The notes under the pieces are model-generated. The model was given only the letters and a program-made list of their open reading frames with translations, was not told where the DNA came from and did no database searches. From Nitrospirota bacterium (GTDB taxonomy: Bacteria; Nitrospirota; Thermodesulfovibrionia; Thermodesulfovibrionales; SM23-35): 64,000 bases of DNA. Position 1 is the stretch's first letter. Every line of letters begins with the position of its first letter. A program made the translations under genes and the position numbers. This document shows, one piece after another, positions 9,224-64,000 of this stretch. The stretch is taken from the NCBI GenBank assembly GCA_049323875.1, contig JBMOLW010000030.1, positions 224,393-288,392 on the forward strand, written 5' to 3'.

Positions 9224-9239
9224 ATCAAGAGAAAAATGT

Positions 9240-10571: not shown

Positions 10572-10625
10572 AGCACTGTATATTACAGCATGAAATCGCC
10601 AATTTGTACAGTGCCCGACAGAATA

Positions 10626-14782: not shown

Positions 14783-14872
14783 GCCTCTGGCAGATAGCTT
14801 TACGTTACGAACCCAGTTCCAGGAGAGCAGGGATATTCTTAATATTCTTTAAATAATAAGTTGTTATAATAT

Positions 14873-15220
14873 TTAATTAAAGTTATTTCTTATATTGTCA
14901 ACGACAAAATACAGCAACTCTGTTTCTTCAATGATTTCATCAAACGCATGGGAATCTCCGGGTTCCGCATAGATCAGATCCCCTTGCCTGAGAGTTATCT
15001 TCTCTCCATTCACCGTCATGACCGCTTTACCCCGAATGCAGTAGAAGACTTCGTATTCTTTATGATGGGTATGTTCTGAAACAGCATTTCCCGGTTTGAG
15101 AATGATATGGCTTATATGCCTGACGCAGGGAAGAGAATCCCGGGTAAGTACCCTCTTTTTTAATTGAGGGTCATGACTTACCGGCTCAAAGGGAGTTTCA
15201 TCAAGGGGAAACAGTTTCAT
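14873..15220 (-). CDS. Cupin domain protein
   Basis: Cupin motifs G.AVSEHTHHKEYEVFYCIRG and GDLIYAEPGDSHAF. 115 aa. Confidence 0.75.
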   Translation of the reverse strand: MKLFPLDETPFEPVSHDPQLKKRVLTRDSLPCVRHISHIILKPGNAVSEHTHHKEYEVFYCIRGKAVMTVNGEKITLRQGDLIYAEPGDSHAFDEIIEETELLYFVVDNIRNNFN

Positions 15221-41124: not shown

Positions 41125-42909
41125 TTATCCCAGACCAGTAACCCGGAGCACCTCCTCAACCGTTGTCACTCCCTGAATAAGCTTGGTGATGGCATTCTCC
41201 CTGAGAGTCCGCATTCCCTGTCCGAGCGCCACTTTTTGCACGTTCATCAGGGATGTTTTGTCGTGGACTTGCTCCCTGAGTTTCTCGGTCATATCCATGA
41301 TCTCAAAAATCCCGGTTCTTCCCCGGTAGCCTGTGCTCCTGCACTGTTCGCAGCCCCTCCCGAGGGATACTGTGTATGTTTTTACTTTTTCGTAATCGAG
41401 CCTCAGGATATAACACTCGTCTTTCGTCAGGTGATATTCCTCCTTACATGCCGGGCAGACCTTCCTGACCAGTCTCTGGGCAATGACGCCCAGCAGAGTG
41501 GCATTCAGGAGAAAATCTTTCGCCCCGAGATCAAGGAGCCTAGTGATGGAACTCGGGGCATCGTTCGTATGGAGTGTCGAAAAGACCAGATGACCGGTAA
41601 GCGCCGCCTGAATTGCGTTCTCTGCGGTTTCGAGATCCCGAATTTCTCCTACCATGATGATATCAGGGTCCTGTCGCAGAATTGTCCTCAGGGAATTCGC
41701 AAAAGTCACGTCAATCTGAGGATGCACCGCGGTCTGATTAAATCCCTCATAGATCATTTCTATCGGGTCTTCGATCGTCGTGACATTCACCTCGGAAGTC
41801 GAGAGCAGTTTCAGGAGCGAGTAGAGAGTTGTGGTTTTGCCGCTTCCCGTCGGGCCTGTCGCAAGGATGATACCATGGGTATTTGCAATGAATGATTTCA
41901 CCAGCTTGAGCTCTCTGGAGAAAAAGCCCAGTTCTTCTATATCCTTCATGAGCAATTCGGGATCAAATATCCTGATGACCACTTTTTCGCCGAAAGCAAC
42001 CGGGAGTGTGGAGATACGAAGTTCGACCTCCTTCCCTTCATGGGCCGTCTTGATTCTTCCGTCCTGCGGCCTCCTCTTCTCTGCAATATCCATCCGTGCA
42101 AGCATCTTGATCCTGGAGACGATCGGAGGATGAACAGCCTTGGGAATCTTATGGATATTATGGAGGATTCCGTCTATCCTGAATCGGATAAGGCTGAACT
42201 CCCGTTTCGGTTCGATATGGATATCCGAAGCCCTGCTGGAATAGGCATAATGGAGCAGATATTCAACTGCATTGACAATATGCTGATCAGTCGCTTCGAG
42301 TTCTGTGATGGATTTGAGTTTGATATACTGCTCAAGATTCCCGAGGTCCGTCTTTGTATCGATTTCCTTATCGGCTGAGGTAATAGCGGATTTGAACCCG
42401 AAAAACTCCGTAATGATCTGTGTGATATCTTCCCTGGTCGCAACCGCCGTCTCAACCCGGTAACCGGAAACGCGCTCAATCCAGTCCACAGCTTCCCGAT
42501 CAAACGGATCGGCAGTGGCAACAGTCAGGACATTGTTGGCAAGCGCAATGGGTACAATCTGGTGGCGGATCGCATAGGGACGTGAAATGATCCTGGTGAC
42601 GATTTCGTAATCCAGCTTCAGTGGGTCAATCCTGACAAAGGGAAGGTTCAGGTGTCTGGCAACTGCCATCATGATACCCTCGGCGGTCAGTATCCTCCCC
42701 TCTTGCGGAGAAGATATCTTGAGCGATTCGATAATGTCGATCAGGGAAACAATCGACTGGTCGGCGAGCACATGTCGTGCTCCCGGTCTTTTTGACTTGA
42801 GCAACTTTGCCCTCTGGAGAGTCGCTTTTGACCTGACTGACTGGACCTGTTCTTCGGTCAGGAGTCCCTCAGAGGAGAGGATATCAAGCAGCGGTTCATT
42901 TTCTTTCAC
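41125..42909 (-). CDS. GspE/PilB-family type II secretion / type IV pilus assembly ATPase (orphan)
   Basis: T2SSE N-terminal domain, Walker A GPTGSGKTT, Asp and His boxes (IMVGEIRD, GHLVFSTLHTN), and the tetracysteine motif CPACKEEY...CEQCRSTGYRGR. Confidence 0.9.
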   Translation of the reverse strand: MKENEPLLDILSSEGLLTEEQVQSVRSKATLQRAKLLKSKRPGARHVLADQSIVSLIDIIESLKISSPQEGRILTAEGIMMAVARHLNLPFVRIDPLKLDYEIVTRIISRPYAIRHQIVPIALANNVLTVATADPFDREAVDWIERVSGYRVETAVATREDITQIITEFFGFKSAITSADKEIDTKTDLGNLEQYIKLKSITELEATDQHIVNAVEYLLHYAYSSRASDIHIEPKREFSLIRFRIDGILHNIHKIPKAVHPPIVSRIKMLARMDIAEKRRPQDGRIKTAHEGKEVELRISTLPVAFGEKVVIRIFDPELLMKDIEELGFFSRELKLVKSFIANTHGIILATGPTGSGKTTTLYSLLKLLSTSEVNVTTIEDPIEMIYEGFNQTAVHPQIDVTFANSLRTILRQDPDIIMVGEIRDLETAENAIQAALTGHLVFSTLHTNDAPSSITRLLDLGAKDFLLNATLLGVIAQRLVRKVCPACKEEYHLTKDECYILRLDYEKVKTYTVSLGRGCEQCRSTGYRGRTGIFEIMDMTEKLREQVHDKTSLMNVQKVALGQGMRTLRENAITKLIQGVTTVEEVLRVTGLG

Positions 42910-46121: not shown

Positions 46122-47279
46122 CTACGACCCTTTGAGCGGCAGCCTGATAAGAAACGTTGTGCCTTTGCCCGGTTCGCTTTCGACAGAGATGTCCCCGTTA
46201 TGATACTGGACTATCTTCAACGCAAAGGTAAGTCCCAATCCCGGACTGTACATCTTTGAAGAGACCATGGGATCGAAGATATTCTTTATCTTGTCCTTTT
46301 CGATTCCTTTTCCGGTATCGGCGATCTGCACTCTCAGATTTTCTGTGCCGGTCCTCGTGCTGATCGTAAGATTTTTTTCTGTGGTCTCCATAGCCTCAAT
46401 CGCATTCCTGATCATGTTGCAGAGAGCCCTTTTCATAAGCTTTTTGTCGATCGGAAGGACAGGGAGCTCATTCTGGAGGTCTGTCTTTACCGTAATATTC
46501 TTTTCCGCAAACTCCTTTTCGAACACCTTGAGGGCATCAAGAACAATCTCATTGATGTCGACAGGCTCCTTCTGGGATATCTCCATGGATTTGAGTTCTA
46601 TGAGCTGCCTGATCATCTCTTCAAGCACTGCAACATCTTCTATGATCATCTGGAGATATTTTCTGTTCGGGTCATCTTTAGGAAGTTTCTGAAAGACCTT
46701 CCGCGCAAACCCGCCGATCGATGTCAGGGGGTTCCGTATCTCGTGCGCAACCTCGTCGATCATCTGTTCAAGGGCTCCGGTTTTCTCGGTCTCAACCTTC
46801 TTTTCATGGGTTGCCTTGATGGAGAGGAGGGAGCGTACCCTTGCGGAGAGTTCTTTATAGTCAAAGGGCTTCGCCATGTAATCATCGGCCCCCGTATCAA
46901 GCCCTTTTACCTTGTAGTCGATTTCCCCTTTTGCGGTGAGCATAAGGATGGGTATATATTTTGTCTTTTCGTCAGACTTCAGCCGTCTGCAGGTCTCGTA
47001 TCCATCCATCACCGGCATCATGACGTCAAGAACGATCAGGTCGGGGTTATATTCCGGGACTTTCCTGAGCCCTTCTTCGCCATTGGAGGCCTGGTCAGTG
47101 TCATATCCTTCGGCGCGGAATCTCTTCCTGAGCAGTTCGACGGTGTCAGGGGCGTCATCGACAATCAGTATCTTATTCTTCTTCTCTCCCAAGAACGCTT
47201 TCCCATTTTCCCCGAAGATAATTCCTGACCTGCTCAGGAAATTCCCGCACATTGATCGGTTTCGATATGTATCCTTCAA
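46122..47279 (-). CDS. Receiver-histidine kinase fusion (REC-HisKA-HATPase)
   Basis: REC domain (KILIVDDAPDTVELL...DLIVLDVMMPVMDG...LTAKG), H-box VAHEIRNPLTSIGGF, ATPase motifs NAIEAM, DTGKGI and GLGLTF. The true start is probably downstream of 47279 (ATG 47252 or TTG 47192), because the maximal ORF overlaps the upstream gene by 107 nt. Confidence 0.88.
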   Translation of the reverse strand: MKDTYRNRSMCGNFLSRSGIIFGENGKAFLGEKKNKILIVDDAPDTVELLRKRFRAEGYDTDQASNGEEGLRKVPEYNPDLIVLDVMMPVMDGYETCRRLKSDEKTKYIPILMLTAKGEIDYKVKGLDTGADDYMAKPFDYKELSARVRSLLSIKATHEKKVETEKTGALEQMIDEVAHEIRNPLTSIGGFARKVFQKLPKDDPNRKYLQMIIEDVAVLEEMIRQLIELKSMEISQKEPVDINEIVLDALKVFEKEFAEKNITVKTDLQNELPVLPIDKKLMKRALCNMIRNAIEAMETTEKNLTISTRTGTENLRVQIADTGKGIEKDKIKNIFDPMVSSKMYSPGLGLTFALKIVQYHNGDISVESEPGKGTTFLIRLPLKGS

Positions 47280-47641: not shown

Positions 47642-50347
47642 TTATGCTGTTGTATTCAGTTTACTGATCGTATTTTTCATTTCAGTGAGAAAATCTTCCC
47701 GGGTAAGGACCCCCCTATTGAGTATCCCCTGAATCCTCCCGTTCAGTTCATCGATCTCTTGTTCGGTAAGGTCTTTATGGGTCACAATAATGACCGGGAT
47801 ATCTTTCAGGCTGTCTTCTGTTTTCAGATATTCAACGACGTCAAAGCCCACATCCGGAGCGGTAGGATTGAGCACAATAAGATCAGGCTTGAAATCCTTT
47901 ATAGAATGCTTTGCGTCGTCGCTGTTATACGCAGTGGTTACCTGGTATTCAACTTCCCGGAGGACTCCGCCTATCATCCTTACTGTTTCCGGTTCATTAT
48001 CAACCACAAGCACCCTCTTGATCTTCTTCATTTTCTCGAGATTGGTAAGCTTGTGGAGGAGTGTCTCCTTCTCTACGGGCTTTATCAGATATTCGGCAGC
48101 GCCGAGGCTGAACCCCAATTTCGTATCGTCCACGATAGAGAGTATGATCACGGGGATATCCTGGGTCTCCGGGGTATTTTTCAGCTCCTGGAGCACCTGC
48201 CACCCGTTTTTCCGCGGCATCATGATATCAAGGGTTATCGCGAGAGGCAGGATTTCCTTGGCTTTTTCGACAGCACCCTCTCCACTGAGGAGGCCTACAA
48301 CCCGGTAATCATCTCCCAGGTATTTCTCGATTATCTCTATCGCTTCCGGGTTGTCGTCTATGGCGAGAATCACTTTTTTTCCGTCACCGCCCTGCGTCGT
48401 CTGCGGGGAAACGAGTTTCTCTTTTTCCTCATCACAGAGGATAAGTCCCTTGATGAGCTCGCATCCCTTGCAAAAGTCAACCTTTTCAGGATAGGCTGCG
48501 AGCTTCATCCCTGCGCAATGGGTTCCGAGGATCATCCAGCACCGGCTTTCCTTGCTTCCGTACGCAGGGCAACTCGGCTGACCACAGCGGACATATTCCC
48601 AGCACCGGATCGGCTTCCCTGCATATTCCGGCTCTCTGAGGAGGGCTTCGGTCGGGACTCCAAAATACTCGGCAAGCCCCTGCGCCATTCGCTTTTCAAC
48701 GACAGGCTGCTCGGGCTTATCGAGAACCTCCTTTTTAAACGGGATGGTGAAACAGAACCTGCTTCCTTCTCCGTATTTGCTCGTTACCCATATGAATCCC
48801 TTATGCAGCGATATCAGCCCCCGCGCAATACTCAGGCCAAGCCCGGTACCTTCATACTGCCTCACCGTAGTGAGGTCCACCTGGACAAACTTGTCGAAAA
48901 TCTTCCCGATATCCTCTTCCTTGATCCCTATGCCGGTATCTTCAACGCAGATTTCTGCGAATATCGGATCTTCTCCGGGTGCGATGCCACGTTCTGAAAT
49001 CTTTGCCCTGATCGTAATCCCTCCCTTGTGGGTAAATTTTATCGCATTCGATACCAGATTGATAAGTACCTGTTTAATTTTATCTTCATCGGCATAGAGC
49101 AAAGGAAGTCCTTCCCCGATATCATAGGAAAGATTCAGGTTCTTTTGTTTGATTTGAGGTTCAAAGGTCGGCATGACCGATTCGACAAGCCATCTGAAAT
49201 CTATCTCTTTCGGCGACAGTTTCATTTTCCCCGATTCAATCTTCGAGATATCGAGGACATCATTGATCAACTGGAGAAGATGCCGGGCATTCGCAGCAAC
49301 CTTCCTCAGGCTCTTTTCCTGTTCCTCATTCACCGGGCCGTCGACCTCATCCATCAGGAGATCGGTATATCCGATAATCGCGTTCATGGGCGTCCGGAGT
49401 TCATGGGACATGTTTGCGAGAAAAGTCGATTTCAGTTTATCAAGCTCTCTCAGTTCCCTGTTTGCCACTTCAAGCAGGGAAAGGAGCCTCGTCCTCTCGT
49501 TTAAGAGCGAGGTCTTCCTCTTCACCTCCTCCTCCAACGCCTTGCTCGTTGAAGATATCCTTCCAACCATCTCATTAAAGGTGTTCCCGAGGATACCGAT
49601 TTCATCCTCTGTTCTCACCTCGACGGTAACCGACATATCGCCTTCAGCGAATCTTTCTGCCTTCTCCGCCAGGCTTTCTACCGGTTGTCTCACGAGGCGG
49701 TTTACCATGAAGTAGACAAGAACAATGGAGAAGGGAATCAGGAACATCACGATCATGATGGTCCGGTTGCGCTGAGCAACGACTTGTGCGTATGTGCGCT
49801 CTGCATCGATTCTGACCACGATGCCGCCGAGGACTTTCCGCGAAGACCCGTGGCAGTGATAACAGTTCTCTTCATTCAGGATCGGACGCATAACGACAAG
49901 ATGTCTCTTCCCTCCCATAAGGTCTTCGAAAGGTTTGCGGGTATCAACCGGTGGGGTAATCCCGGTATTGAGGGTTTCAGCAAGGGTATCAAGAACCTCG
50001 TTATTCCGGATATGTTCTTTCAGTCCGGAACTGACCGATCTCTCATGGGTCGAGTAGACAATCTCCTGCTCAAAATCGCAGATGAAAACTTCCACGTCCT
50101 GCATCTTTTCCCGGATATCTGCCAGCTCTCTTACAATCGCCTCTTTGTCCCCGACTTCCATGGGGTATTTTATGCCTGCATAGACCGCGTCAGCCAGTTC
50201 AGTGCTCATCGCCGAGGCAATCTCAAGCCTGTCCTGCGTGCCGAAGTATATCCTCATATATATTTCTGCGATCAGCACCAACAGAATTATAACGAGCATT
50301 GCCACCATGATCTTATAGCCCAGTCTTTTCTTTATGAAACTTAGCAT
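47642..50347 (-). CDS. Hybrid sensor histidine kinase: periplasmic CxxCH-containing sensor, HAMP, HisKA, HATPase, Cys-rich insert, two receiver domains
   Basis: TM1 is IMVAMLVIILLVLIAEIY. The roughly 170-aa periplasmic domain ends in NCYHCHG. TM2 and a HAMP domain follow. The H-box is ANMSHELRTPMNAIIGY and the ATPase motifs are DTGIGI and GTGLGLSI. A Cys-rich segment follows (CWEYVRCGQPSCPAY...CWMILGTHCAG...CKGC...C). Two REC domains close the protein (VILAIDDNPE... and VLVVDNEPE...). Confidence 0.9.
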   Translation of the reverse strand: MLSFIKKRLGYKIMVAMLVIILLVLIAEIYMRIYFGTQDRLEIASAMSTELADAVYAGIKYPMEVGDKEAIVRELADIREKMQDVEVFICDFEQEIVYSTHERSVSSGLKEHIRNNEVLDTLAETLNTGITPPVDTRKPFEDLMGGKRHLVVMRPILNEENCYHCHGSSRKVLGGIVVRIDAERTYAQVVAQRNRTIMIVMFLIPFSIVLVYFMVNRLVRQPVESLAEKAERFAEGDMSVTVEVRTEDEIGILGNTFNEMVGRISSTSKALEEEVKRKTSLLNERTRLLSLLEVANRELRELDKLKSTFLANMSHELRTPMNAIIGYTDLLMDEVDGPVNEEQEKSLRKVAANARHLLQLINDVLDISKIESGKMKLSPKEIDFRWLVESVMPTFEPQIKQKNLNLSYDIGEGLPLLYADEDKIKQVLINLVSNAIKFTHKGGITIRAKISERGIAPGEDPIFAEICVEDTGIGIKEEDIGKIFDKFVQVDLTTVRQYEGTGLGLSIARGLISLHKGFIWVTSKYGEGSRFCFTIPFKKEVLDKPEQPVVEKRMAQGLAEYFGVPTEALLREPEYAGKPIRCWEYVRCGQPSCPAYGSKESRCWMILGTHCAGMKLAAYPEKVDFCKGCELIKGLILCDEEKEKLVSPQTTQGGDGKKVILAIDDNPEAIEIIEKYLGDDYRVVGLLSGEGAVEKAKEILPLAITLDIMMPRKNGWQVLQELKNTPETQDIPVIILSIVDDTKLGFSLGAAEYLIKPVEKETLLHKLTNLEKMKKIKRVLVVDNEPETVRMIGGVLREVEYQVTTAYNSDDAKHSIKDFKPDLIVLNPTAPDVGFDVVEYLKTEDSLKDIPVIIVTHKDLTEQEIDELNGRIQGILNRGVLTREDFLTEMKNTISKLNTTA

Positions 50348-54085: not shown

Positions 54086-55052
54086 GATTATTTCCACTGG
54101 TTCGTTTCTTCCGGAAAAAGTCCTCACCAATCATGACCTTGAAAAAATGGTGGACACATCCGATAAATGGATCACCGAGAGAACAGGAATCAAGGAAAGG
54201 CGGATATCCGGTCCCGGTCAGGCAGCATCTGATCTCGCCTATGAGGCGTCACGGATTGCCCTTGAGAGAGCCGGAATCGGCGCCGGAGAAGTGAATGCAA
54301 TTATCGTCGGCACAATATCCGGTGACATGCCCTTCCCTTCAACTGCCTGCTTTCTGCAGGATAAGCTCGGGGCATCAAATGCCGTCGCCTTTGATGTCAA
54401 TGCCGCCTGTTCCGGTTTTCTCTATGCCCTCTATATTGCGGACAGTTTCATCAAATCCGGTCTCCAGGAAAAGATACTCGTGGTCGGCACCGAAATACTT
54501 TCACAGATAACCGACTGGGAAGACAGGACAACCTGTGTTCTCTTCGGTGACGGCGCGGGAGCCGTTCTCGTCGGTCCTTCTCAGGACGACCGGGGCTTGC
54601 TCTCGGTTCATATTCACTCTGACGGATCAATGTGGGACCTTATTTCAGTTCCCGGCGGAGGGTCACGCAATCCGGTTTCCCCTGATTCGATCAAACAGAG
54701 GCTTCACTATATCAAGATGAAAGGCAATGAAACGTTCAAGGTCGCGGTAAGGACTCTTGAGGAAATTGCCCTCACAACCCTTTCCCGGAACGGATTGGAC
54801 TCTTCGGATCTTTCACTGCTCATACCGCATCAGGCGAACCAGAGGATCATTCAGGCTACGGCAGACAGACTGAAGCTGCCGAAAGACAAAGTTGTGATGA
54901 ACCTTGAAAAGTACGGAAATACCTCTGCGGCTTCCATCCCGATAGCACTCGACGAAGCAGTCCGGACAGGAAGAATACAGGAGGGAGACTATATTCTGCT
55001 CGAAGCGTTCGGGGGCGGACTTACCTGGGCTTCCGCTCTAATAAAGTGGTGA
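54072..55052 (+). CDS. fabH: 3-oxoacyl-ACP synthase III
   Basis: GTG start. Active-site Cys in NAACSGFLYAL, His in IPHQANQRI, Asn in YGNTSAASIP. 326 aa. Confidence 0.95.
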   Translation: MQRSRIISTGSFLPEKVLTNHDLEKMVDTSDKWITERTGIKERRISGPGQAASDLAYEASRIALERAGIGAGEVNAIIVGTISGDMPFPSTACFLQDKLGASNAVAFDVNAACSGFLYALYIADSFIKSGLQEKILVVGTEILSQITDWEDRTTCVLFGDGAGAVLVGPSQDDRGLLSVHIHSDGSMWDLISVPGGGSRNPVSPDSIKQRLHYIKMKGNETFKVAVRTLEEIALTTLSRNGLDSSDLSLLIPHQANQRIIQATADRLKLPKDKVVMNLEKYGNTSAASIPIALDEAVRTGRIQEGDYILLEAFGGGLTWASALIKW

Positions 55053-57188
55053 TTTTCTTACCCCTGTGTCAAGGAGTCGCCTAACCGCAGACAGCAACTC
55101 TTTACCCTGGAACGGTTTTCTGATAAAGGCATCGACCAGATTCTCCTTGCTGAGCGAAGCATTGGTGTACCCTGAGATACCGATAATTCTGATCCCCGGT
55201 TTTATCTTTTTCAGGTTTTTTATCAGTTCGTCCCCTTCCATGAGCGGCATCATGATATCCGTAATCACAAGCTGAACAGTCCCGCTATTTTCCCTGAACA
55301 TATCGATTGCGTTGAGAGAGTTGTTGACCGGCATAACCTGGTACCCATGGTTTACCAGGATCTCTTTTACAAAATTGAGCACGTCCACATCGTCGTCAAC
55401 AACCATGATGTTCTCATTACCCTGCATGGAGGTACTCGCAGGCTTCGCGATACCCGCAAGAATTTTTTCAGACGCGGGGAAATAGATCACAAAAGTCGAT
55501 CCCTTGCCTGGTTCACTCTCGACGGAGATATATCCCTTGTGGTCCTTGACGATTCCGTACACCGTCGCAAGGCCCAGCCCCGTCCCCTTGCCCTTTTCCT
55601 TGGTAGTAAAAAAAGGGTCAAAAATCTTGTTCATAATCTGTGCAGGAATTCCGCTCCCGGTATCCGATACCGTCATCACAATATATTTGCCAGGTACTAT
55701 GTAAGTCGGAGTATCGTACCGTTCCCTTCCGATATCAGCCATCTCGGTTCGGATGGTAATAAGGCCGCCATCGGGCATTGCATCCCGTGCGTTCACCATA
55801 AGGTTCATGAGCACCTGTTCGACCTGGTTGGGATCACCCTCAAAGTTCTGAGAGGTGCTGCTCAATTCAAGTTTGATCCCTATCCTTTTGTCCAGCACCC
55901 CTTCGAAAAGCCGAACTGAGTCATTAATAATGTCATGAAGGTTCAGCGGGAGAACCTCATGGGTTTCCCTTCTCGCGAAACTGAGGAGTTTCGATACCAT
56001 CACCCCCGCCTTCCTTGCCGAGCTCTCGATATTCCTTACCCTCAGCTTTGAAGTTTCGTCCAGTTCGCTGAATTCCAGGAGCAGTTCCGAATACCCGAGG
56101 ATGGTGGTCAGGATGTTGTTGAAGTTATGGGCAATGCCGCCCGCGAGCGCTCCGACGGAATCCATTTTCTGTGAATGCATAAGCTGCTCCCGGATCCGCT
56201 TCTTTTCCGTAATATCGCGGTAGAAAGACTGGATGAAAAGTTCTCCTCCTATCTCTATCGCCTTTGCACTGACTTCAAGGTCTACCTTTTCCCCTTCCCT
56301 CCTGTAATGTTCTGTCTCATAGATTATTGATTCACCGTGCAGAATCCGCTCCCTCCGGTCGTCAATCTGTTTCTTATCGCCTCGTGCCTCGAGTAATTCA
56401 ATATTCACTCCTACGAGAGCATCTTTCTCAAACCCATGGATCTCGCAGGCCTTTTTGTTCACATTTACGATCGTTCCGTTCCTGTCCTGCACGATAATAC
56501 CGTCGGTAGCGTTATCGAAGACGGACTTGTGCCATTTCTCAGAGATGGCGAGTTCTTTGGTACGTTCCTGAACGAGGTCTTCGAGCTGGGTAGAATATTT
56601 TTCAAGCTGTGCTTTCTGTTGATCGAGGTCATATTGAAGTCCGACCTCGCTTACTAATCTTTGGTGATGCAGGTATCTTAAGAGGATAAGGGAAAACATT
56701 ACGGATAAGATAAAAATATTCGCATTAATAAAATAAGAGGGATTCGTGATTGTATCATAAAAAAGTATTGGCAGAAGAAATATTGCGTACATTATGGCAG
56801 AAGCTACGATACTCATAATTACGCTCACCGGGATAAGTCCTATAACGTAGACAACAGATAACATAATGCCTGCAAAATAAGGGGATTGATGTCCTCCTAT
56901 CTTGGCTATCATCAAGGCTACCATAGTACACACAGATATCGCAGCCAAGATAGTCACAACATTCTGTCTGTTCCTGTCAACTTTTTGTTTATTGTACAAA
57001 TAGATCAAAAAGATGGAGCCTGCGGCAAAGATGCGATATATTAAAAAAATTTCAAAGTTAGACGGGGTTACAAAATAATCGAGGATGATAAGAGAAAGAA
57101 TAACAAGGGAACCTATTTTTGTTGCAATATTGGACCAATGATAGAGAAGGATGTCCAGATTTGATCGAATGTATTCTTCTTTTGTCAT
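55038..57188 (-). CDS. Hybrid sensor histidine kinase: polytopic membrane sensor, PAS, HisKA, HATPase, C-terminal receiver
   Basis: About 6 TM helices in the first 190 aa, then a coiled coil. PAS domain (FDNATDGIIVQDRNGTIVNVN...), H-box GGIAHNFNNILTTILGY, ATPase motifs NARDAM, DTGSGI and GTGLGLATV, and a REC domain (IMVVDDDVDVL...VITDIMMPLMEG). Confidence 0.9.
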   Translation of the reverse strand: MTKEEYIRSNLDILLYHWSNIATKIGSLVILSLIILDYFVTPSNFEIFLIYRIFAAGSIFLIYLYNKQKVDRNRQNVVTILAAISVCTMVALMIAKIGGHQSPYFAGIMLSVVYVIGLIPVSVIMSIVASAIMYAIFLLPILFYDTITNPSYFINANIFILSVMFSLILLRYLHHQRLVSEVGLQYDLDQQKAQLEKYSTQLEDLVQERTKELAISEKWHKSVFDNATDGIIVQDRNGTIVNVNKKACEIHGFEKDALVGVNIELLEARGDKKQIDDRRERILHGESIIYETEHYRREGEKVDLEVSAKAIEIGGELFIQSFYRDITEKKRIREQLMHSQKMDSVGALAGGIAHNFNNILTTILGYSELLLEFSELDETSKLRVRNIESSARKAGVMVSKLLSFARRETHEVLPLNLHDIINDSVRLFEGVLDKRIGIKLELSSTSQNFEGDPNQVEQVLMNLMVNARDAMPDGGLITIRTEMADIGRERYDTPTYIVPGKYIVMTVSDTGSGIPAQIMNKIFDPFFTTKEKGKGTGLGLATVYGIVKDHKGYISVESEPGKGSTFVIYFPASEKILAGIAKPASTSMQGNENIMVVDDDVDVLNFVKEILVNHGYQVMPVNNSLNAIDMFRENSGTVQLVITDIMMPLMEGDELIKNLKKIKPGIRIIGISGYTNASLSKENLVDAFIRKPFQGKELLSAVRRLLDTGVRKSPLY

Positions 57189-57270
57189 TGAGGTTTTGTC
57201 CGTTTTGACTTTATAATCAATAATATAACATTTGCCTGAACGCTACAATAGTATTCTTTTTGGCTGAATA

Positions 57271-58683
57271 TCATTTCATTTTTTCTTTTCTCAATATCCT
57301 TTTGGCTGTATCATGTCCCGAATAACATGTTCCCGGCATGCCGAATGCGATGCTTGTCCAGTGACCGGTGAGATACAAACCACGAATACCAGTCGTTTTG
57401 CTGAAAAGTGCATCATAAGTCTGCGATGTCGTCTTTGCCCAACCAAAAGCCGCACCTTGAGAATTAAGAGTATATCGATATAACGTGTGAGGGGTAGCTG
57501 CATCAAAATAAACAATATTCTCCCTGATATTCGGAAACAAAGTTTCAATTCTGTTCAAAAAATTATCAGCCACTTTCTTTTTATTTTCTTTCCAGAACAA
57601 TTTATTCATAAAAGGAGCACCGACAAATGCTAATAAGGTTTTCTGGTCGGGAGATACCCTGAACATATACATACCGGCCTTGCCGAAATTGCACTGCTGT
57701 ATTTGGCTATAGATTTCATCCAGATCGTAATGCGGAAGATACCATGTGTTTGTGCCAGGAGGCGGAAGTCCCGCAAATGGTTTATTGATGCCAATATAGA
57801 GAATGAACGTTGATATCGAAGGAACCATATTTTTCAGACTTTCAATTCTCTGTTTGTCAGGGATTGTCTCCCTTAATAAACGAGTATACGTTTGATTCAT
57901 ATCACATGCTGATATGACATATTTGGAACTGAGTGTTACATTGTTTTCCAATTTTACTCCTACTACTGAATCGTGGGTAACAAGAATTTCGTTTACAAGA
58001 GTCCGGTAGAGAATCTTCCCGTGGTTCTCTTTGATAATATAATCGAATGCATTAGGCATATTTTGTATGCCGCCTTCCGGATAGTACCCACCATCAATAA
58101 TAAATTCACTAAATATTTTTGAACCGCTGAATGCATGCATGAGAGATGGCGGTAACCCTCCATTACCAAATACCGGGATAGCAAATGAACTTATCAGTTT
58201 TTCGTCCCGAAAAAAAGACCTCAGCAAGGATTCGAATGTCTTGCTCTTCAATGTACTAAACTGCGCTTGATTTGAGGACATGAGGAAATCAAAGAACTTT
58301 TTGAGATTATCTTTCTCCTGAGGGAACAGCGTTGCCAGTCCAGCCAATGTAGTATCCTTGTCATTCCAAAAGGTCATTGTAAAATCTGGGGCGATTATAA
58401 TGTCAGAGGGATCAAAGCGTTCAATTTTGATTATTTTATCAACTCCCAATTCTGTGAATATTTTATAGACATGTCCACCCTCTCGATAGTTACCGAAAGA
58501 ATGTGCTGCAGAATCGAACAGGAATCCCTTCCTCTTGAAGGAGGTAAAATAGCCTCCTGGTTTATCATGCTGCTCTACGATCAGTACTTTCATGCCCGCT
58601 TTTGCCAGATAGCACCCGCACACAAGGCCGCTTATTCCAGCGCCTATGATAATGGCGTCGTACGTAGTTTGAGATTTTGTCAT
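57271..58683 (-). CDS. CrtI/phytoene-desaturase-like FAD-dependent oxidoreductase
   Basis: N-terminal dinucleotide fold YDAIIIGAGISGLVCGCYLAKAGMKVLIVEQHDKPGG. 470 aa, and the C-terminal LYLTGHWT matches the family. Its ATG abuts the ACP stop with a 0-nt gap. Confidence 0.8.
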   Translation of the reverse strand: MTKSQTTYDAIIIGAGISGLVCGCYLAKAGMKVLIVEQHDKPGGYFTSFKRKGFLFDSAAHSFGNYREGGHVYKIFTELGVDKIIKIERFDPSDIIIAPDFTMTFWNDKDTTLAGLATLFPQEKDNLKKFFDFLMSSNQAQFSTLKSKTFESLLRSFFRDEKLISSFAIPVFGNGGLPPSLMHAFSGSKIFSEFIIDGGYYPEGGIQNMPNAFDYIIKENHGKILYRTLVNEILVTHDSVVGVKLENNVTLSSKYVISACDMNQTYTRLLRETIPDKQRIESLKNMVPSISTFILYIGINKPFAGLPPPGTNTWYLPHYDLDEIYSQIQQCNFGKAGMYMFRVSPDQKTLLAFVGAPFMNKLFWKENKKKVADNFLNRIETLFPNIRENIVYFDAATPHTLYRYTLNSQGAAFGWAKTTSQTYDALFSKTTGIRGLYLTGHWTSIAFGMPGTCYSGHDTAKRILRKEKMK

Positions 58684-58935
58684 TTAAGAGGCTTTCTCTT
58701 TTAATAACGAGGTTACGAGTTCAACTGCCTGGGTAAGGGTGGTAATATTCGGCACATCTTCATCCCTGATGGATATTTTGAATTTTTTTTCTATTGCCAC
58801 CGTAATCTCAATCGCTTTAATGGAATCTATTTCCAGATCAGTAGCTAAATTTTTGTCAGGGGTTATCTCTTCCGGTTCAAATCCTGAGACATCCGAGATG
58901 ATCGATATAATTTCTTGTTCCACATTTTCTGACAT
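58684..58935 (-). CDS. Dedicated acyl carrier protein (divergent from housekeeping AcpP)
   Basis: 83 aa. Phosphopantetheine attachment context LATDLEIDSIKAIEITVAIEKKF (D-S-I in place of the canonical D-S-L) in a four-helix-length protein. Confidence 0.8.
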   Translation of the reverse strand: MSENVEQEIISIISDVSGFEPEEITPDKNLATDLEIDSIKAIEITVAIEKKFKISIRDEDVPNITTLTQAVELVTSLLKEKAS

Positions 58936-58961
58936 GAGCGCTATCCCTTTCCTTTGTGATT

Positions 58962-60167
58962 TTATGCATATTTTCTCACTACCAGTGCTGCATTATTGCC
59001 TCCGAATGCATAAGAATTATTCAGGGCGATATTTACAACATGTTCCCTCGCCTTGTTCGGCACACAGTCTATATCACACTCCGGGTCAGGTGTCTCGTAG
59101 TTGATCGTCGGAGGGATGATATCATTTTTCACAACCAGCGCACAGGTTACCCCTTCTATTGCGGAAGCCGCTCCCATGGTATGGCCTATCATAGATTTTA
59201 CGGAACTAACCGGTATAGAGGAATGCCGGTCTTTGAAAACCTGTTTGATCGCTGCACATTCAGTCCTGTCGTTCGCCCTGGTCCCGGTGCCGTGAGCGCA
59301 GATATAGTCCACGTCTTTTTCACTGATGTCTGCTCCCTTCAGCGCATTCATCATGCACCGTGCAACCCCGTCAACAGATGGCTGCGTCATATGCTGCGCA
59401 TCGCAGCTGAGGCCGTACCCTGATATTTCCGCATAAATTTCAGCGTTCCTTTGCAACGCACTTTCAAGGGATTCGAGGATGAGCATACCCGCCCCTTCCG
59501 CTACCATCATGCCTTTTCTGTTCTTATCAAAAGGCTGACATTTCTCAGGAGCAACCGCACGTAACTGGTTGAACCCGGTAAACTCAATGCGGGAGAACGG
59601 ATCTGATGCGCCAGCGATAACTATATCCGCCCTGTGAAGCCTGATCAGGTCATAGCCGTAGGCAATCCCATAATTTCCGGCTGCGCATGCCGTCGTAAAA
59701 ATAAGGACAGGGCCATTGATTCCGTATTGTCTCGCTGTGTTGCACGGAGCAGCGTGCGTTGGTATTTTGGAAACACTACGGCGATCAACCGATTTCTTGT
59801 GAACCAGCATCGTATTGATATCCTCTATCGTCTGCGCATCACCCAGCGTTGTACCAAATGAAACACCCACGGTCTTTCTCTTAAGGTAGTCTGTTTCAAT
59901 ACCTGAATCAGCAAAGGCGAGTTTCGTTGCAGCCAACGCCATGTGAGAGGAACGGTTCAATAACTTCACGCGTTCTTTATCGATAAAATCTTCCGGCACA
60001 AAACTTTTTACTTCTCCGCCATTGTGGGTAAAATGATCCGCCGTATCAAATGACGAAACAGGACTGATGCCGGACGTCCCCTGAAGGAGGTTCTCCCAGA
60101 ATTCTTTCCATCCTATTCCAATGGATGAAACAACACCCAGTCCTGTAATGACTACCCGTTTATTCAT
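58962..60167 (-). CDS. Beta-ketoacyl-ACP synthase (KAS I/II, FabF-like) with intact Cys-His-His triad
   Basis: MNKRVVITGLGVVSS. Active-site Cys in FTTACAAGNYG, His in ICAHGTGTRANDRTE, His in SVKSMIGHTMGAAS. The ATG at 60167 overlaps the FabZ stop by 8 nt; the ORF track extends to 60242. Confidence 0.88.
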   Translation of the reverse strand: MNKRVVITGLGVVSSIGIGWKEFWENLLQGTSGISPVSSFDTADHFTHNGGEVKSFVPEDFIDKERVKLLNRSSHMALAATKLAFADSGIETDYLKRKTVGVSFGTTLGDAQTIEDINTMLVHKKSVDRRSVSKIPTHAAPCNTARQYGINGPVLIFTTACAAGNYGIAYGYDLIRLHRADIVIAGASDPFSRIEFTGFNQLRAVAPEKCQPFDKNRKGMMVAEGAGMLILESLESALQRNAEIYAEISGYGLSCDAQHMTQPSVDGVARCMMNALKGADISEKDVDYICAHGTGTRANDRTECAAIKQVFKDRHSSIPVSSVKSMIGHTMGAASAIEGVTCALVVKNDIIPPTINYETPDPECDIDCVPNKAREHVVNIALNNSYAFGGNNAALVVRKYA

Positions 60168-60600
60168 GCCTGGCACTGAAAACAAGTTCCGCTTCCGCAA
60201 CTTTTTTATCACCGACAAAAGCTTCTCCCGCAACAAACGCACCTGACGGCAGAGATTTTACGTTTCTTACTTTGATCATCAGCTGGTCTCCGGGAACGAC
60301 CGGATGGGAAAACCGTGCCTTGCAGGAACCGAAATAGTAAAGCGATTTTGCGTCAGTGCCGGCTGTCTCCTTACCGCTGGCAAAGAGAATAATCGCAGTC
60401 TGTGCCATCGCCTCGATGATAAGGGCACCGGGCATGACCGGGGTCTCAGGGAAATGTCCCGGGAAGAACGGTTCATTCATTGAAACATTCTTGAGCGCAA
60501 CAGCTTCTTTTCCGGGTTCCCCATCGAGTACCCTGTCAATCATGAGGAAAGGGTACCTTTGGGGAATCAGTTTCCTGATTGCCTTGATATCAAGTTCCAT
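60160..60600 (-). CDS. FabZ-type 3-hydroxyacyl-ACP dehydratase (hot-dog fold)
   Basis: IPQRYPFLMIDRV and NEPFFPGHFPETPVMPGALIIEAMAQ are canonical FabZ motifs, including the catalytic His. 146 aa. Confidence 0.88.
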   Translation of the reverse strand: MELDIKAIRKLIPQRYPFLMIDRVLDGEPGKEAVALKNVSMNEPFFPGHFPETPVMPGALIIEAMAQTAIILFASGKETAGTDAKSLYYFGSCKARFSHPVVPGDQLMIKVRNVKSLPSGAFVAGEAFVGDKKVAEAELVFSARHE

Positions 60601-60602
60601 TG

Positions 60603-61844
60603 TTATTCCTCGTATCTCTGCAGCACCATTGCCGCATTATTGCCATAAGGATCAGCAGCAAGCACGAGCGTATTTCTTATCATTTTTTTTCTCGCACTGT
60701 TCGGGACATAATCAAGATCACATTCCTGATCCTTCTCTTCATACCCTACTGTTGGTGAGACAATTCCGCGATGGAGACACTCTGTTGCTGCTGCGAGGGA
60801 GAGAGCTCCGGAAGCCGAAAAGGTTTCTCCTGTCATGGATTTAACGGAACTGACCGGGATATCATATGCATACCTGCCGAAAACATTCTTCAGAACGGCT
60901 GTTTCCATCCTGTCGAGCCCTCTGGTGGAATTTGCACATGAGGCAATACAGTCTATGTCTTCCGGAACGAGGGATGCTTCTTTCAAAGCATTCCTGACCG
61001 CATTTGCCAACCCTTCCCCTCCATGGGAAAAGTCCATTGCCGATTCATAATCAAAGGCATTGCTGTAACCAAGAACGGTTGCATAAATTTCAGCGCTTCT
61101 CTCAAGCGCGCGTGTTTTCTCCTCAAGAACAAGAACGGCAGCCCCTTCAGAGAGAATCGTTCCATTTCTCCTCGCATCAAAAGGACAACAGAGAGGCTCT
61201 GTCCCATCCATTCCTGACAGACATCCGAGCCTAGAGAAGCCAAGGAGTGTTTCTTCACACAGCTCCTCGACCCCGCCTGCAAGTACGACATCTGCCCGTC
61301 CAAGCCGGATAAAATCAGCTCCATATGACACCGCATCAAGACCCGCACAAAACCCTGTTGAGATCGTGGCATTAAATCCCCTGATCTTGAACCTTATCGA
61401 TGCCTGACTCGCAGGTGAATTGAGCACTGTATTCGGGAAATGCGAGGGATTGACATATTTCGGTCCATCGAGAAGACCCTGCCTGTCGAATTCAGCGATG
61501 CTATGGAGACTTCCGAACGTAGAGCCGATTGCGACTCCTATACGATGGGTGTTTTCCTCTGTAACCTCCAGCCCTGAATCATCCAGCGCGAGCTTTGCTG
61601 CGGCACTGAGCAACTGGGTGCTTCTGTCAAGCGTCCGGAGCCCTTTCTTGCCGAGCAGAGCAACCGGATCAAAGGCATTGATCTCTCCGGCATGATGCAC
61701 TTTCAATCCCGAGGTATCAAACAGGCTTATCGGTCTGAATCCTGTCCTGCCCTGAACGAGACTATCCCAGTATTCTTCCCTGCCGATACCCACGGGGGAC
61801 ACTATTCCCATCCCGGTAATCACGACGGTTTTCATAGTCTTCAA
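60603..61844 (-). CDS. Ketosynthase paralog lacking both catalytic histidines (Cys-Cys-Glu in place of Cys-His-His)
   Basis: Thiolase-fold KS throughout (VVITGMGIVSPVGIG...). Cys is retained in ISTGFCAGLDA. The first His position reads IASCANSTRGLD and the second reads SVKSMTGETFSASG. 413 aa. Confidence 0.85.
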   Translation of the reverse strand: MKTMKTVVITGMGIVSPVGIGREEYWDSLVQGRTGFRPISLFDTSGLKVHHAGEINAFDPVALLGKKGLRTLDRSTQLLSAAAKLALDDSGLEVTEENTHRIGVAIGSTFGSLHSIAEFDRQGLLDGPKYVNPSHFPNTVLNSPASQASIRFKIRGFNATISTGFCAGLDAVSYGADFIRLGRADVVLAGGVEELCEETLLGFSRLGCLSGMDGTEPLCCPFDARRNGTILSEGAAVLVLEEKTRALERSAEIYATVLGYSNAFDYESAMDFSHGGEGLANAVRNALKEASLVPEDIDCIASCANSTRGLDRMETAVLKNVFGRYAYDIPVSSVKSMTGETFSASGALSLAAATECLHRGIVSPTVGYEEKDQECDLDYVPNSARKKMIRNTLVLAADPYGNNAAMVLQRYEE

Positions 61845-61934
61845 TACCCTCTGTGCCCTGTGAGGTTTCCGATATGAAACAGCCCTGTTTCTTTCCTGAA
61901 ACCCTTACAGTATACCAGATGAAGCGGATCCTTA

Positions 61935-63239
61935 CTATGATGATGCCAGATAAAACACTATGACACCTGAATCCTCCCGGGTTTCGGTGATTGAACTCTT
62001 CGGAATATCAGCATCGGCAAATATCCGGAAAAAATCTTCCTCAGTCCGCTGCAGGAAACCATCCCAATCCACAATCCAGTGGTAATCCTGGTGCCGGTAG
62101 CGCCTGGCGTCCTTGAATGAGGTAATAAGCAGTCCTCCCGGGTTCAACAGCCTGTACAGGCTGTTGAACAGCCGTGCAAGAAATTCTGATTCAAGATAAT
62201 CAAAGAAACCGACGCTGTAGATTATATCCTGCTTTCCGAATTCACTCACGTTCAGTTCGTGGTCAAACATCCTGAGGGCATTGTATTTCCGCAGCACGAC
62301 CTGGTCTGATGTCAGCGGAGAAATATTCGTATAGGAAAGCCGGTTTGCTGAGAAAGAGAGGGCGTCGTTATCAATGTCTATACAGGTGAAGCGGGCACCT
62401 GATTCCTCAATGTCCCGCGCCAGCGTAAAGACTTCACGGCAAGATCCGCAGGCAATATTCAGAACATTCGGTTTCTCTCTCTTTCTCAATTCTTGTCTTA
62501 ATATTCCTTCGAGTTTCTCTATCCTGTTCCTTACTGCGGGGCCAAGGTCCGCATCCAACAGATAGCGATCCAGATAGTATCCAATGCCTTCCGACAGCGG
62601 GGTATTCTTATAGGCAATCTCAAGCGTTTTGTAATCACCCTGCTGACCTTGCGGCCATGTACGCGCCCGGTTGATGCAGTAACTTTTCGAAAGGACTGTG
62701 TTGGTTTTCTCCCTGAACCGTATCCTCGTCGCCCTGATGACATCCCTGTCTTTCACCTTCTGTTCGAATTCGGCGCAGGACCTCAGCACGTCATCTATCG
62801 CCTCCCTGGTCACCTGAAAAAGTTCTTCAGGTTTTTCTTCCGGGTTAAGGCATCTTTTTTCCAGGGTTTCAAGACGTGCATTGAATACCTCGGTGGCCTC
62901 ATCGAGCCGGTCAACATATTTCCCGTCCAGCTCAACACCGGCCCTGTACCCGGTCTCGACCTGAGAACACCAGCGCACGAATCCAACCTTTTCCTCAATC
63001 CCGCCGTTGAACCATATCACATTCCCCGGCGAAAGAGGATAATCGGTTTGTATACCGACACCAGTCTTGCTGATATCAACCGCCTGCGCCTTCAGATCTA
63101 TCAGTCTGCGCTGTTTCGCATCATTCGAAAAAACAGAATAATCGACTTCGATTGCACAGGGCATTCTCGAAACCTTCCGGTTTGTTGCATGGTAAACTGT
63201 TCCTGAATATTCCATAAGACCCCCTTTTTGATACTCCAT
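61935..63239 (-). CDS. PilZ domain fused to class I SAM-dependent methyltransferase
   Basis: The N-terminus has RKVSR (RxxxR) and DISKTG (DxSxxG). The C-terminus has SAM motif I VLNIACGSCRE, then FTCIDIDNDAL, IIYSVGFFDYL and LNPGGLLI. The alternative start is the ATG at 63215. Confidence 0.8.
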   Translation of the reverse strand: MEYQKGGLMEYSGTVYHATNRKVSRMPCAIEVDYSVFSNDAKQRRLIDLKAQAVDISKTGVGIQTDYPLSPGNVIWFNGGIEEKVGFVRWCSQVETGYRAGVELDGKYVDRLDEATEVFNARLETLEKRCLNPEEKPEELFQVTREAIDDVLRSCAEFEQKVKDRDVIRATRIRFREKTNTVLSKSYCINRARTWPQGQQGDYKTLEIAYKNTPLSEGIGYYLDRYLLDADLGPAVRNRIEKLEGILRQELRKREKPNVLNIACGSCREVFTLARDIEESGARFTCIDIDNDALSFSANRLSYTNISPLTSDQVVLRKYNALRMFDHELNVSEFGKQDIIYSVGFFDYLESEFLARLFNSLYRLLNPGGLLITSFKDARRYRHQDYHWIVDWDGFLQRTEEDFFRIFADADIPKSSITETREDSGVIVFYLASS

Positions 63240-63351
63240 TGTTTTATTGCTCCTGCACAGCGAGATCAGTCATGAACAATGCCTGCTTACGTCATCATCG
63301 TTACACGCCTCCTTTCCAGCCTAAAAATATCCCTTTCCATTCGTCAGAGAA

Positions 63352-64000
63352 TCACCGGTGCCATTTCCTGAGAAATTTTTCGAGTGTATCCCGATACGCC
63401 ATTGACAAGAGTACAATGACAATGGCAATCCCGACAAGCATTGAAAACTGGTAGTACTGCTGATTGCGGAAAAAAATTCCTCCCAGGGTAAGCATGACAG
63501 TGCCCATCAGCCTCCCCACGGTGCTGATGATGAGGAATTCTCCCGTGGCCATTGGGCCAAGGCCAAGGATGTAGCAGAGGTAATCCTTCGGGAATCCGGG
63601 GATGAGGAAGAGGATAAACACAAGCACCTCTGCCTTCCGGTGTTTCAGGAGGTAATCATACCGCTCTATCGTCCTTTTCTGCACAAACTTTTCGACAAAA
63701 GGTCTTCCGAAGGTCTTCGAGAAAAAAAAAGCAAGCCATGAACCGAGGGTCAAGCCGAGAGTTGAGAGTATTATGCCGAGGAACCCGCCATAGAGATACC
63801 CCCCGAGAAATCCCGTGACTTCCCCGGGGATGGGAGCGGCCACAACCTGAAGCAGCTGGAGTGCAATAAACCCGAACCATGAGAACGGTCCCAGAGTGTT
63901 CAGGAACGATTCAAGCCTGTTTCTGTCGAGAAAGAAATGGAACGCACCACTTGCATAGAGGACAAGAACGGTCACGAAGAAGGTGATCAGGATGAAGAGC
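63352..64000 (-). CDS. TVP38/TMEM64 (DedA/SNARE-associated) family membrane protein, N-terminus probably outside window
   Basis: LQLLQVVAAPIPGEVTGFLGGYLYG is the family signature, with a polytopic profile. The frame stays open from the GTG at 63975 to the window edge (..LFILITFF-VTVLVLY). Confidence 0.75.
   Translation of the reverse strand, partial: LFILITFFVTVLVLYASGAFHFFLDRNRLESFLNTLGPFSWFGFIALQLLQVVAAPIPGEVTGFLGGYLYGGFLGIILSTLGLTLGSWLAFFFSKTFGRPFVEKFVQKRTIERYDYLLKHRKAEVLVFILFLIPGFPKDYLCYILGLGPMATGEFLIISTVGRLMGTVMLTLGGIFFRNQQYYQFSMLVGIAIVIVLLSMAYRDTLEKFLRKWHR

Follow-up and report, generated by a model that had tools for sequence, protein, structure and literature searches.

A PilZ-bearing, PhcB-like methyltransferase in a Nitrospirota acyl-chain and sensor-kinase cassette: a putative signal synthase under c-di-GMP control

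What is the role of a methyltransferase that begins with a PilZ domain, carrying motifs for the binding of cyclic diguanosine monophosphate (c-di-GMP), and that heads a row of acyl-chain genes ending in a sensor kinase? This question is raised by a stretch of 64,000 nucleotides (hereafter the window; contig JBMOLW010000030.1 of assembly GCA_049323875.1, positions 224,393 to 288,392) from the metagenome-assembled genome (MAG) of an uncultured, anaerobic Nitrospirota bacterium (Thermodesulfovibrionia). The gene in question occupies positions 61935..63239 on the minus strand and encodes, in 434 amino acids, a PilZ domain, a helical domain and a class I S-adenosylmethionine (SAM) methyltransferase. 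As described below, the core of this enzyme and the sensor of the kinase resemble PhcB and PhcS, the synthase and the receptor in Phc quorum sensing, and the two genes are linked across Nitrospirota. The cassette probably represents a cell-to-cell signal system that has not been described before and that is under the control of a second messenger. That the gene itself encodes the synthase of a Phc-type signal under c-di-GMP control is slightly favoured, with a probability of about 0.55.

Anatomy of the methyltransferase and its homology to PhcB

All the motif strings that the first-pass annotation had quoted for this open reading frame (ORF) are present on the minus strand: RKVSR at residues 21-25 and DISKTG at residues 55-60 (nt 63060-63179 spans both), ARTWPQGQQGDYKTLEIAY at residues 192-210, VLNIACGSCRE at residues 259-269, CIDIDNDAL at residues 286-294 and LNPGGLLI at residues 365-372. 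Residues are numbered throughout on the 434-aa ORF, with the first ATG as residue 1. Translation probably begins at the second ATG (M9, nt 63215), which would give a protein of 426 aa, because an AAGGGGG Shine-Dalgarno sequence lies 5 nt upstream of this codon and because homologues, mostly 426 aa long, begin at the position aligned with it. Inspection of the sequence upstream of the first ATG revealed no ribosome-binding site. A 100%-identical NCBI protein of 426 aa was found in a Nitrospirota MAG, and the nearest relatives belong to Thermodesulfovibrionales. The names given to these relatives at NCBI are just "PilZ domain-containing protein" or "class I SAM-dependent methyltransferase".

The C-terminal half was confirmed as a SAM methyltransferase by two Pfam models scoring over their cut-offs, Methyltransf_12 (35.1 bits, cut-off 30) and Methyltransf_25 (30.8 bits, cut-off 27). 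Among 111 homologues (61-87% identity), the SAM motif residues G265, D288 and G369 are invariant, and G368 is nearly so. An AlphaFold2 model of the full protein, built from the homologue alignment (predicted local distance difference test, pLDDT, of 86; predicted template modelling score of 0.79), shows helices at residues 108-253 and a Rossmann fold at residues 258-433. The region preceding the Rossmann fold had been described as a helical linker of about 140 aa; it is indeed helical in the model, but it is not a spacer. Residues 137-253 (62481..62831, minus strand) are conserved as strongly as the catalytic domain and include an invariant R-x-R-T-W-P-x-G-x-Q-G-D (columns R191-D202), and the second half of the region lies within a core homologous to PhcB.

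This core covers residues 178-430 (61950..62708, minus strand), i.e. the distal helical region and the Rossmann fold, as delimited with hhalign, BLASTP and Pfam. PhcB makes methyl 3-hydroxymyristate or methyl 3-hydroxypalmitate, which is sensed by PhcS, and the genes form a phcBSRQ operon (PMC7694676). Instead of Ralstonia PhcB itself, we compared the window protein with the methyltransferase of a phcBSRQ-type operon found by tblastn on a Paraburkholderia plasmid and with homologues from Cupriavidus and Massilia. The Paraburkholderia graminis operon encodes a 468-aa methyltransferase, a MASE8 histidine kinase and two REC proteins, and the order in Cupriavidus and Massilia is methyltransferase, MASE8 kinase, REC-HisKA-HATPase, REC. 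These layouts agree with the published phcBSRQ organisation (PMC7694676, PMC6989110), and the Phc proteins of Ralstonia, Cupriavidus and Paraburkholderia are treated as homologues (PMC6989110).

BLASTP aligned the window protein with the Paraburkholderia methyltransferase at 25% identity over 252 aa (E = 1e-13). The comparison of the two families with hhalign gave a probability of 98.3% (E = 2.5e-14) between residues 178-430 and PhcB residues 203-459, pairing RTWPQGyQGDY with TKPLGYAGDY and HWxxDW with HxxEW. By both methods, the homology reaches past the generic SAM-binding fold. In addition, the PhcB profile matches all the scorable sequences among 150 representative relatives (two short fragments apart), and many family members carry the PhcB orthology name in their Joint Genome Institute annotation. 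The likeness to PhcB, which the first-pass annotation had advanced as an analogy, is therefore a homology, and these profile and BLASTP matches place the window protein in a PhcB-like superfamily as a remote homologue of PhcB. It is not a PhcB orthologue, since its N-terminus differs and the phcR and phcQ genes are missing.

PhcB begins with a domain of about 200 aa containing an invariant R22, and the window protein has its PilZ domain in that place. R22 was invariant in 32 Burkholderiales homologues, and an adaptive R22C mutation has been reported in PhcB (PMC6989110), so that this non-catalytic N-terminus is functionally important in PhcB. It is not recognisably a PilZ domain: the idea of a hidden PilZ was dropped, as hhalign and hmmsearch found nothing (probability <1%).

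The kinase, the gene neighbourhood and the acyl-chain genes

The sensor kinase that the first-pass annotation had placed downstream is present and ends the cassette. It is a hybrid kinase of 716 aa (55038..57188, minus strand) in which Pfam identified PAS, HisKA, HATPase and REC domains after a multi-transmembrane sensor (residues ~27-205, nt 56574-57110). A profile built from 36 Nitrospirota kinase N-termini matches three PhcS-type kinases with 63-70 bits, and hhalign between the two sensor families gave 98.8% (E = 1.4e-16) over 179 columns. The motifs LDYxVxPxxFxxFxxxR and GxQSxYYAG are common to both. Moreover, BLASTP of the sensor region against the PhcS type gave E = 2e-6, and the Pfam model MASE8 matched repeatedly and in register, slightly below its threshold (up to 25.2 bits vs. 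26.2). From these alignments, the membrane sensor of the kinase is homologous to the MASE8 sensor of PhcS. As in the phc operons, the methyltransferase gene lies upstream of a kinase of the MASE8 type within the same operon.

We then examined the conservation of this arrangement in one genome per species, which yielded 79 distinct loci, nearly all from Nitrospirota or Thermodesulfovibrionia MAGs. Linkage was counted where the sequence continued for at least 8.5 kb beyond the methyltransferase on its downstream side, which left 35 loci. A kinase homologue is encoded on the same strand downstream of the methyltransferase in 30 of these 35 loci, and an inactive ketosynthase in 31. In the five most divergent loci (L057, L074, L075, L076 and L077), the methyltransferase is directly followed by the kinase, without ketosynthase or carrier-protein genes. 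The methyltransferase-kinase pair is therefore the conserved core of the neighbourhood, and their adjacency is its most conserved feature. HisKA_7TM-GAF kinases and REC proteins are also the neighbours of each of four distant PilZ-methyltransferase genes, which come from MAGs of Omnitrophota, Nitrospirota and others. A carrier protein or a ketosynthase is encoded close to three of them, one locus contains a FabA-type dehydratase in addition, and a GAF-HD_5 protein is encoded near one gene. A scan of positions 54800-64000 for promoters and terminators gave counts not above those of shuffled sequence and is therefore uninformative on transcription units.

Two of the related loci have particular gene contents. 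In an Omnitrophota genome (L089, CP070807.1), positions 1217-2824 encode a 535-aa fusion of a response-regulator receiver with a ketosynthase, which adjoins a carrier protein, two HisKA_7TM kinases and the PilZ-methyltransferase. In one relative (L001, methyltransferase 66% identical), a PhdYeFM-PIN toxin-antitoxin pair (14319-14941) separates the gene of the active ketosynthase from that of the carrier protein. In the window itself, a REC-HisKA-HATPase protein of 385 aa (46122-47279, minus strand), about 8 kb from the cassette, has the architecture and length of PhcR, and its gene lies beside that of a HAMP hybrid kinase (47642-50347, minus strand). It was rejected as a PhcR counterpart, its identity with a Cupriavidus PhcR-type protein being a generic 22%.

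Five genes separate the methyltransferase from the kinase, all on the minus strand. The first (60603..61844; Pfam ketoacyl-synt) encodes an inactive, chain-length-factor-like ketosynthase partner, in which the Cys-His-His triad is replaced by Phe-Cys-Glu in the pairwise alignment with the active ketosynthase. Retention of the catalytic Cys was considered and rejected, because this Cys is one position out of register. It is followed by a FabZ-type 3-hydroxyacyl-carrier-protein dehydratase (60160..60600; NCBIfam fabZ, 161.9 bits) and by an active ketosynthase with an intact Cys-His-His triad (58962..60242; Pfam and NCBIfam), which probably starts at M26 (nt 60167) and not at the GTG at 60242. 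A dedicated acyl carrier protein (58684..58935; Pfam PP-binding, 52 bits) and a flavin-dependent oxidoreductase of the CrtI or phytoene-desaturase family (57271..58683; Pfam Amino_oxidase, 105 bits; NCBIfam crtI_fam) complete the set. Many distant loci (L048, L050, L052, L056, L073, L083, L036 and others) have in addition a FabG-like reductase of ~250 aa between the methyltransferase and the inactive ketosynthase, a gene absent from the window and its close relatives.

Judged by sequence, these five genes (57271-61844) are homologues of the set known in anammox bacteria as Cluster I. The inactive ketosynthase gave 374 bits to amxFabFmut of Brocadia fulgida (9s5h_C) and the active one 492 bits to amxFabF2 of the same species (9s5h_B), the next best match being 328 bits. 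The best solved relative of the FabZ protein is 7qv0_A (128 bits, only slightly over ordinary FabZ structures), which we take, following PMC10139942, to be the anammox amxFabZ. Among the structures matched by the carrier protein are 7qv0_D, 7auf and 9s5i_E; in the amxFabF entry, 9s5i_E is the carrier-protein chain. The CrtI-like enzyme, whose best match in the PDB is the phytoene dehydrogenase 4dgk, is of the same enzyme kind as the phytoene-dehydrogenase homologue ("PDH") of Cluster I.

Such relatives bear on a first alternative, in which the cassette would be a lipid-tailoring operon: its product would be a specialised fatty acid of the membrane, whether polyunsaturated or modified in another way, and this lipid would be decorated by the methyltransferase, with the kinase doing no more than regulating the operon according to the state of the membrane. 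The ketosynthase pair and, less decisively, the FabZ and carrier proteins have as best solved relatives the proteins of Cluster I, which are proposed to serve ladderane or polyunsaturated fatty acid lipid synthesis; a DedA/VTT membrane protein is encoded upstream of the cassette; and the cassette, which ends with the hybrid kinase and its own REC, converges on fabH and plsX. However, the plsX-fabH synteny is mainly found in the nearer relatives, whereas the methyltransferase and the kinase stay adjacent where every acyl-chain gene is gone. Moreover, both are homologous to members of a proven signal synthase/receptor pair, and the distant PilZ-methyltransferase genes sit in loci rich in kinases and REC proteins. 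A role restricted to lipid tailoring thus appears unlikely.

The PilZ domain and its recurrence

The PilZ domain spans residues 21-129 (62853..63179, minus strand). At its N-terminal edge lies the RxxxR arm (RKVSR, 21-25), followed by a six-stranded barrel (26-104) containing the [D/N]hSxxG motif as D55-I-S-K-T-G60 and by a C-terminal helix (108-129). Among the HMM searches that the first-pass annotation had proposed as a check, those with the methyltransferase models succeeded, but the Pfam PilZ model (PF07238) gave 18.7 bits (E = 0.0022) on the window protein alone, under its gathering score of 22.5. This sub-threshold match is nevertheless not due to chance, because five other observations agree with it. 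First, the 111 homologues show no variation at R21, R25 and G60 and at least 90% conservation at S57; an alignment of 26 sequences has either Asp or Asn at position 55, and the motif's hydrophobic residue is also in place. Second, the same Pfam model gave E≤0.01 in 23 of 26 relatives, with a best value of 2.4e-6. Third, hhalign against a canonical PilZ profile from the distant PilZ-methyltransferase proteins gave 96.4% (E = 1e-9), in register, RxxxR falling on RxxxR and DxSxxG on DxSxxG. Fourth, the AlphaFold2 model shows a disordered arm bearing RxxxR, then the six strands and the long helix, so that both the barrel and the C-terminal helix of the PilZ fold are predicted. Fifth, a model of the isolated domain (pLDDT 82) was compared with the PDB using Foldseek, and the best 22 matches were all PilZ domains, including BcsA, PA4608, PP4397, Alg44, YcgR, VCA0042 and MotI, many of them c-di-GMP complexes. 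The N-terminus is therefore a genuine but divergent PilZ domain. Thus, the proposed fusion of PilZ with a class I SAM methyltransferase is upheld, and so are the c-di-GMP motifs and the fold, with the reservation that the protein's own Pfam score falls short.

From the conserved motifs, we infer that the domain would bind c-di-GMP. The organism uses this second messenger, since the window encodes a REC-PAS-GAF-GGDEF-EAL protein (20138-23515, plus strand), a stand-alone PilZ protein (3206-3643, plus strand; 145 aa, 40.8 bits) and a T2SSE ATPase with an MshEN domain (41125-42909, minus strand).

The recurrence of PilZ was tallied in 80 species-level loci. A PilZ domain of the query type was found in 33 of them, and a canonical Pfam PilZ followed by a four-Cys zinc ribbon in 14 (33-47 bits in seven of the eight scanned). 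A further 27 encode a protein of about 350 aa without an N-terminal domain, five are partial and one has another architecture. Two different PilZ types thus exist inside the Nitrospirota family. A broader search of 1.84 billion representative sequences retrieved 3100 clusters at E≤1e-3 and 139 at E≤1e-30, conserved over residues ~105-433. About 45 of the best 150 clusters are 445-490 aa long with an N-terminal PilZ motif, and Pfam PilZ scored 30-52 bits in all ten scanned. PilZ is therefore a recurrent accessory of this enzyme family and, as 27 of 80 relatives do without it, not a requirement.

Proteins of the second type (L040, L046, L059, L073, L074, L076 and L083) have a canonical PilZ domain that begins with M-x-R-x-x-x-R, followed by a CxxC...CxxC zinc ribbon and the PhcB-like core; the Ser of their motif is mostly replaced by Gly (NLGLNG). 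On a complete Nitrospirota chromosome (L072), two tandem REC-PilZ genes (7965-9519, plus strand) lie directly upstream of a PilZ-less methyltransferase (9926-10981) encoded on the same strand, an arrangement that is a split version of the PilZ-methyltransferase fusion. Stand-alone PilZ genes occur near the PilZ-less methyltransferases in six of the 27 loci, which is suggestive; they are directly adjacent only in L072 and within 10 kb in the other five (L048, L050, L051, L063 and L081).

This variability is relevant to a second alternative, in which the PilZ domain would no longer bind c-di-GMP and would be left with a structural role or a role in protein interactions, like degenerate PilZ-related domains. 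Besides the low Pfam score, the window domain reached just 16.7 bits against the PilZ profile of the related methyltransferases; many relatives function without the domain, and the second type has lost the motif Ser in most cases. The query type, however, has kept the residues of both binding motifs under the conservation described above. In addition, the survey by Galperin and Chou (bioRxiv 10.1101/814665) notes that the binding motifs are kept when a PilZ domain is part of a fusion protein. The loss of c-di-GMP binding seems to us about as improbable as the lipid-tailoring role.

A putative signal system and its known counterparts

On balance, the cassette would function as follows. A special acyl chain would be built on the dedicated carrier protein by the active ketosynthase with its inactive, chain-length-factor-like partner, the FabZ dehydratase and the CrtI-like flavoenzyme, to which distant relatives would add the FabG reductase. 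The PhcB-like core, consisting of the helical substrate domain and the Rossmann fold, would methylate the product of the cassette from SAM. By analogy with PhcB, the target would most likely be the carboxyl group, giving a volatile or diffusible acyl methyl ester, whose acyl chain would be set by the cassette enzymes. The hybrid kinase at the end of the operon would perceive the methylated product in the membrane through its PhcS/MASE8-like sensor. The PilZ domain would bind c-di-GMP via the RxxxR arm and the DxSxxG strand and would alter the activity of the methyltransferase, by activation or by inhibition, through the long helix joining the barrel to the helical domain. With a synthase tuned in this way, signal output would depend on the c-di-GMP state of the cell.

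The site of methylation admits a third alternative. With the whole model, Foldseek ranked an uncharacterised Bordetella protein first (3ocj; E = 1.5e-11, 347 aligned columns), and the next closest solved structures are C-methyltransferases, so that methylation on a carbon instead of a carboxyl group might be considered. The enzyme would then add a methyl branch to a carrier-bound beta-ketoacyl or enoyl intermediate, as the C-methyltransferase domains of polyketide synthases (PKS) do. This would be in line with the identity of these matches (SgvM, the CMeT domain of the citrinin PKS, CurJ and DszA) and with the invariance of His387 and Asp391, which are aligned with an invariant His and a near-invariant Glu in PhcB. 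It would also be in line with a type I PKS on an Enterobacter ludwigii plasmid (L086, NZ_CP134637.1, 5781-8915), in which a ketosynthase and a carrier protein are followed by a C-terminal methyltransferase 27.6% identical to query residues 125-433; the PhcB-like core is therefore found at the end of a PKS as well. Of the three alternatives this one is the least probable, because the homology to PhcB (98.3% with hhalign) is far stronger than the weak, generic methyltransferase matches of the PDB sequence search (E>0.03 for C-methyltransferases), because the Foldseek matches have ~12-16% identity and a high root-mean-square deviation, and because PhcB itself is reported to be a methyl 3-hydroxyacyl ester synthase (PMC7694676).

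Several points weigh against a Phc-type synthase under c-di-GMP control. The identity with PhcB is merely ~25%, the N-terminal 180-200 residues of the two families are unalignable (hhalign probability <1%), and no phcR (REC-kinase), phcQ (REC) or phcA-type partner is found at the cassette. The PilZ domain scores below the Pfam threshold in the window protein and is absent from a third of the species-level relatives. A role in membrane lipids would also fit the adjoining plsX and fabH genes and the resemblance of the fatty acid synthase-like genes to the anammox lipid cluster, and the solved structures closest to the model are the uncharacterised Bordetella protein and C-methyltransferases such as SgvM, the citrinin CMeT domain and CurJ.

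If the signal-synthase reading is true, Phc-type signal chemistry would be far more widespread than thought and would reach abundant uncultured lineages of groundwater and sediment; to our knowledge, fatty-acid methyl-ester Phc signalling is known only from Ralstonia and its close relatives. In addition, a second messenger would for the first time be seen to act directly on the synthase of an autoinducer, and the decision between sessile and motile life would be coupled to cell-to-cell communication in a single polypeptide. The "ladderane-specific" set of ketosynthase and chain-length factor would have close non-anammox relatives framed by signalling genes, which bears on how the anammox cluster is read. 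A wider proposal, which we regard as tentative and would rather bet against, is that PilZ-PhcB-like methyltransferases and multi-transmembrane kinases form a phylum-spanning, unrecognised quorum-sensing class in uncultured anaerobes (Nitrospirota, Omnitrophota and others). In this class, c-di-GMP would directly gate autoinducer synthesis, and the cells would signal with an acyl methyl ester of short or medium chain length, possibly polyunsaturated, made by the ketosynthase/chain-length-factor machinery thought to serve anammox ladderanes. The fatty acid synthase-like part of Cluster I would therefore not be specific to ladderane producers.

Among known systems, anammox Cluster I (KustE3603-3608) comprises amxACP, amxFabZ, amxFabF2, amxFabFmut, a phytoene-dehydrogenase homologue and a B12 radical-SAM enzyme. 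The window cassette shares with it an active FabF2-like ketosynthase paired with a FabFmut-like partner showing the same kind of triad loss, together with the FabZ, the carrier protein and the CrtI-family flavoenzyme. In contrast, the gene order differs, the two ends of the cassette are formed by a PhcB-like methyltransferase and a PhcS-like kinase, and no gene for the cobalamin-dependent radical-SAM enzyme is present between 55038 and 63975. Moreover, the host lineage lies outside the anammox bacteria, the only organisms in which ladderanes are reported. Cluster I has been called unique to ladderane producers (10.64898/2026.05.19.726425, a 2026 preprint), and its synteny with Desulfotalea was noted earlier (Rattray et al., PMC2649909). 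For the enzyme alone, 3ocj (a "possible exported protein" of Bordetella parapertussis) is also a weak sequence match to the window protein, and Pfam PF12147 (Methyltransf_20) spans the helical region and the Rossmann fold in relatives; both differ from the window protein by their unknown function, the lack of a PilZ domain and a sequence identity of 14%.

The N-terminal half recalls PilZ-controlled enzymes such as BcsA and Alg44, as well as the pair MapZ-CheR1, in that RxxxR and [D/N]hSxxG are both present in the PilZ domain and its C-terminal helix touches the catalytic partner; by Foldseek, its fold matches the PilZ domains of BcsA, Alg44 and YcgR. MapZ is described in bioRxiv 10.1101/814665 as a PilZ protein that uses its C-terminal helix to bind the SAM methyltransferase CheR1. 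The window PilZ differs in being fused in cis to a small-molecule methyltransferase, instead of acting on a protein methyltransferase or a glycosyltransferase. In the passages of the same survey of PilZ architectures reached by keyword search, methyltransferases appear only as MapZ-CheR and no PilZ-methyltransferase fusion is mentioned. Full-text literature searches found nothing linking PhcB with PilZ or with Nitrospirota.

The closest counterpart is the PhcB-PhcS pair of the phcBSRQ quorum-sensing operon in Ralstonia, Cupriavidus and Paraburkholderia (PhcB being KO K19620). Both systems have a homologous methyltransferase core, with P-x-G-x-x-G-D-Y before the Rossmann fold and an H-W-x-x-D/E-W segment, and in both the synthase gene comes first and is followed by a kinase whose multi-transmembrane sensor is homologous to MASE8. 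They differ in that the N-terminal domain of ~200 aa of PhcB is replaced by PilZ, in that the window kinase is a hybrid with additional PAS and REC domains, without phcR or phcQ, and in that a ketosynthase pair, a FabZ, a carrier protein and a CrtI-like enzyme are inserted between synthase and kinase. The host, moreover, is an anaerobic Nitrospirota MAG and not a member of Burkholderiales. Relative to the known Phc systems, the new elements would thus be the distant phylum of this probable synthase/receptor pair of the Phc type, the putative c-di-GMP input joined to the synthase and the cassette's own acyl-chain factory.

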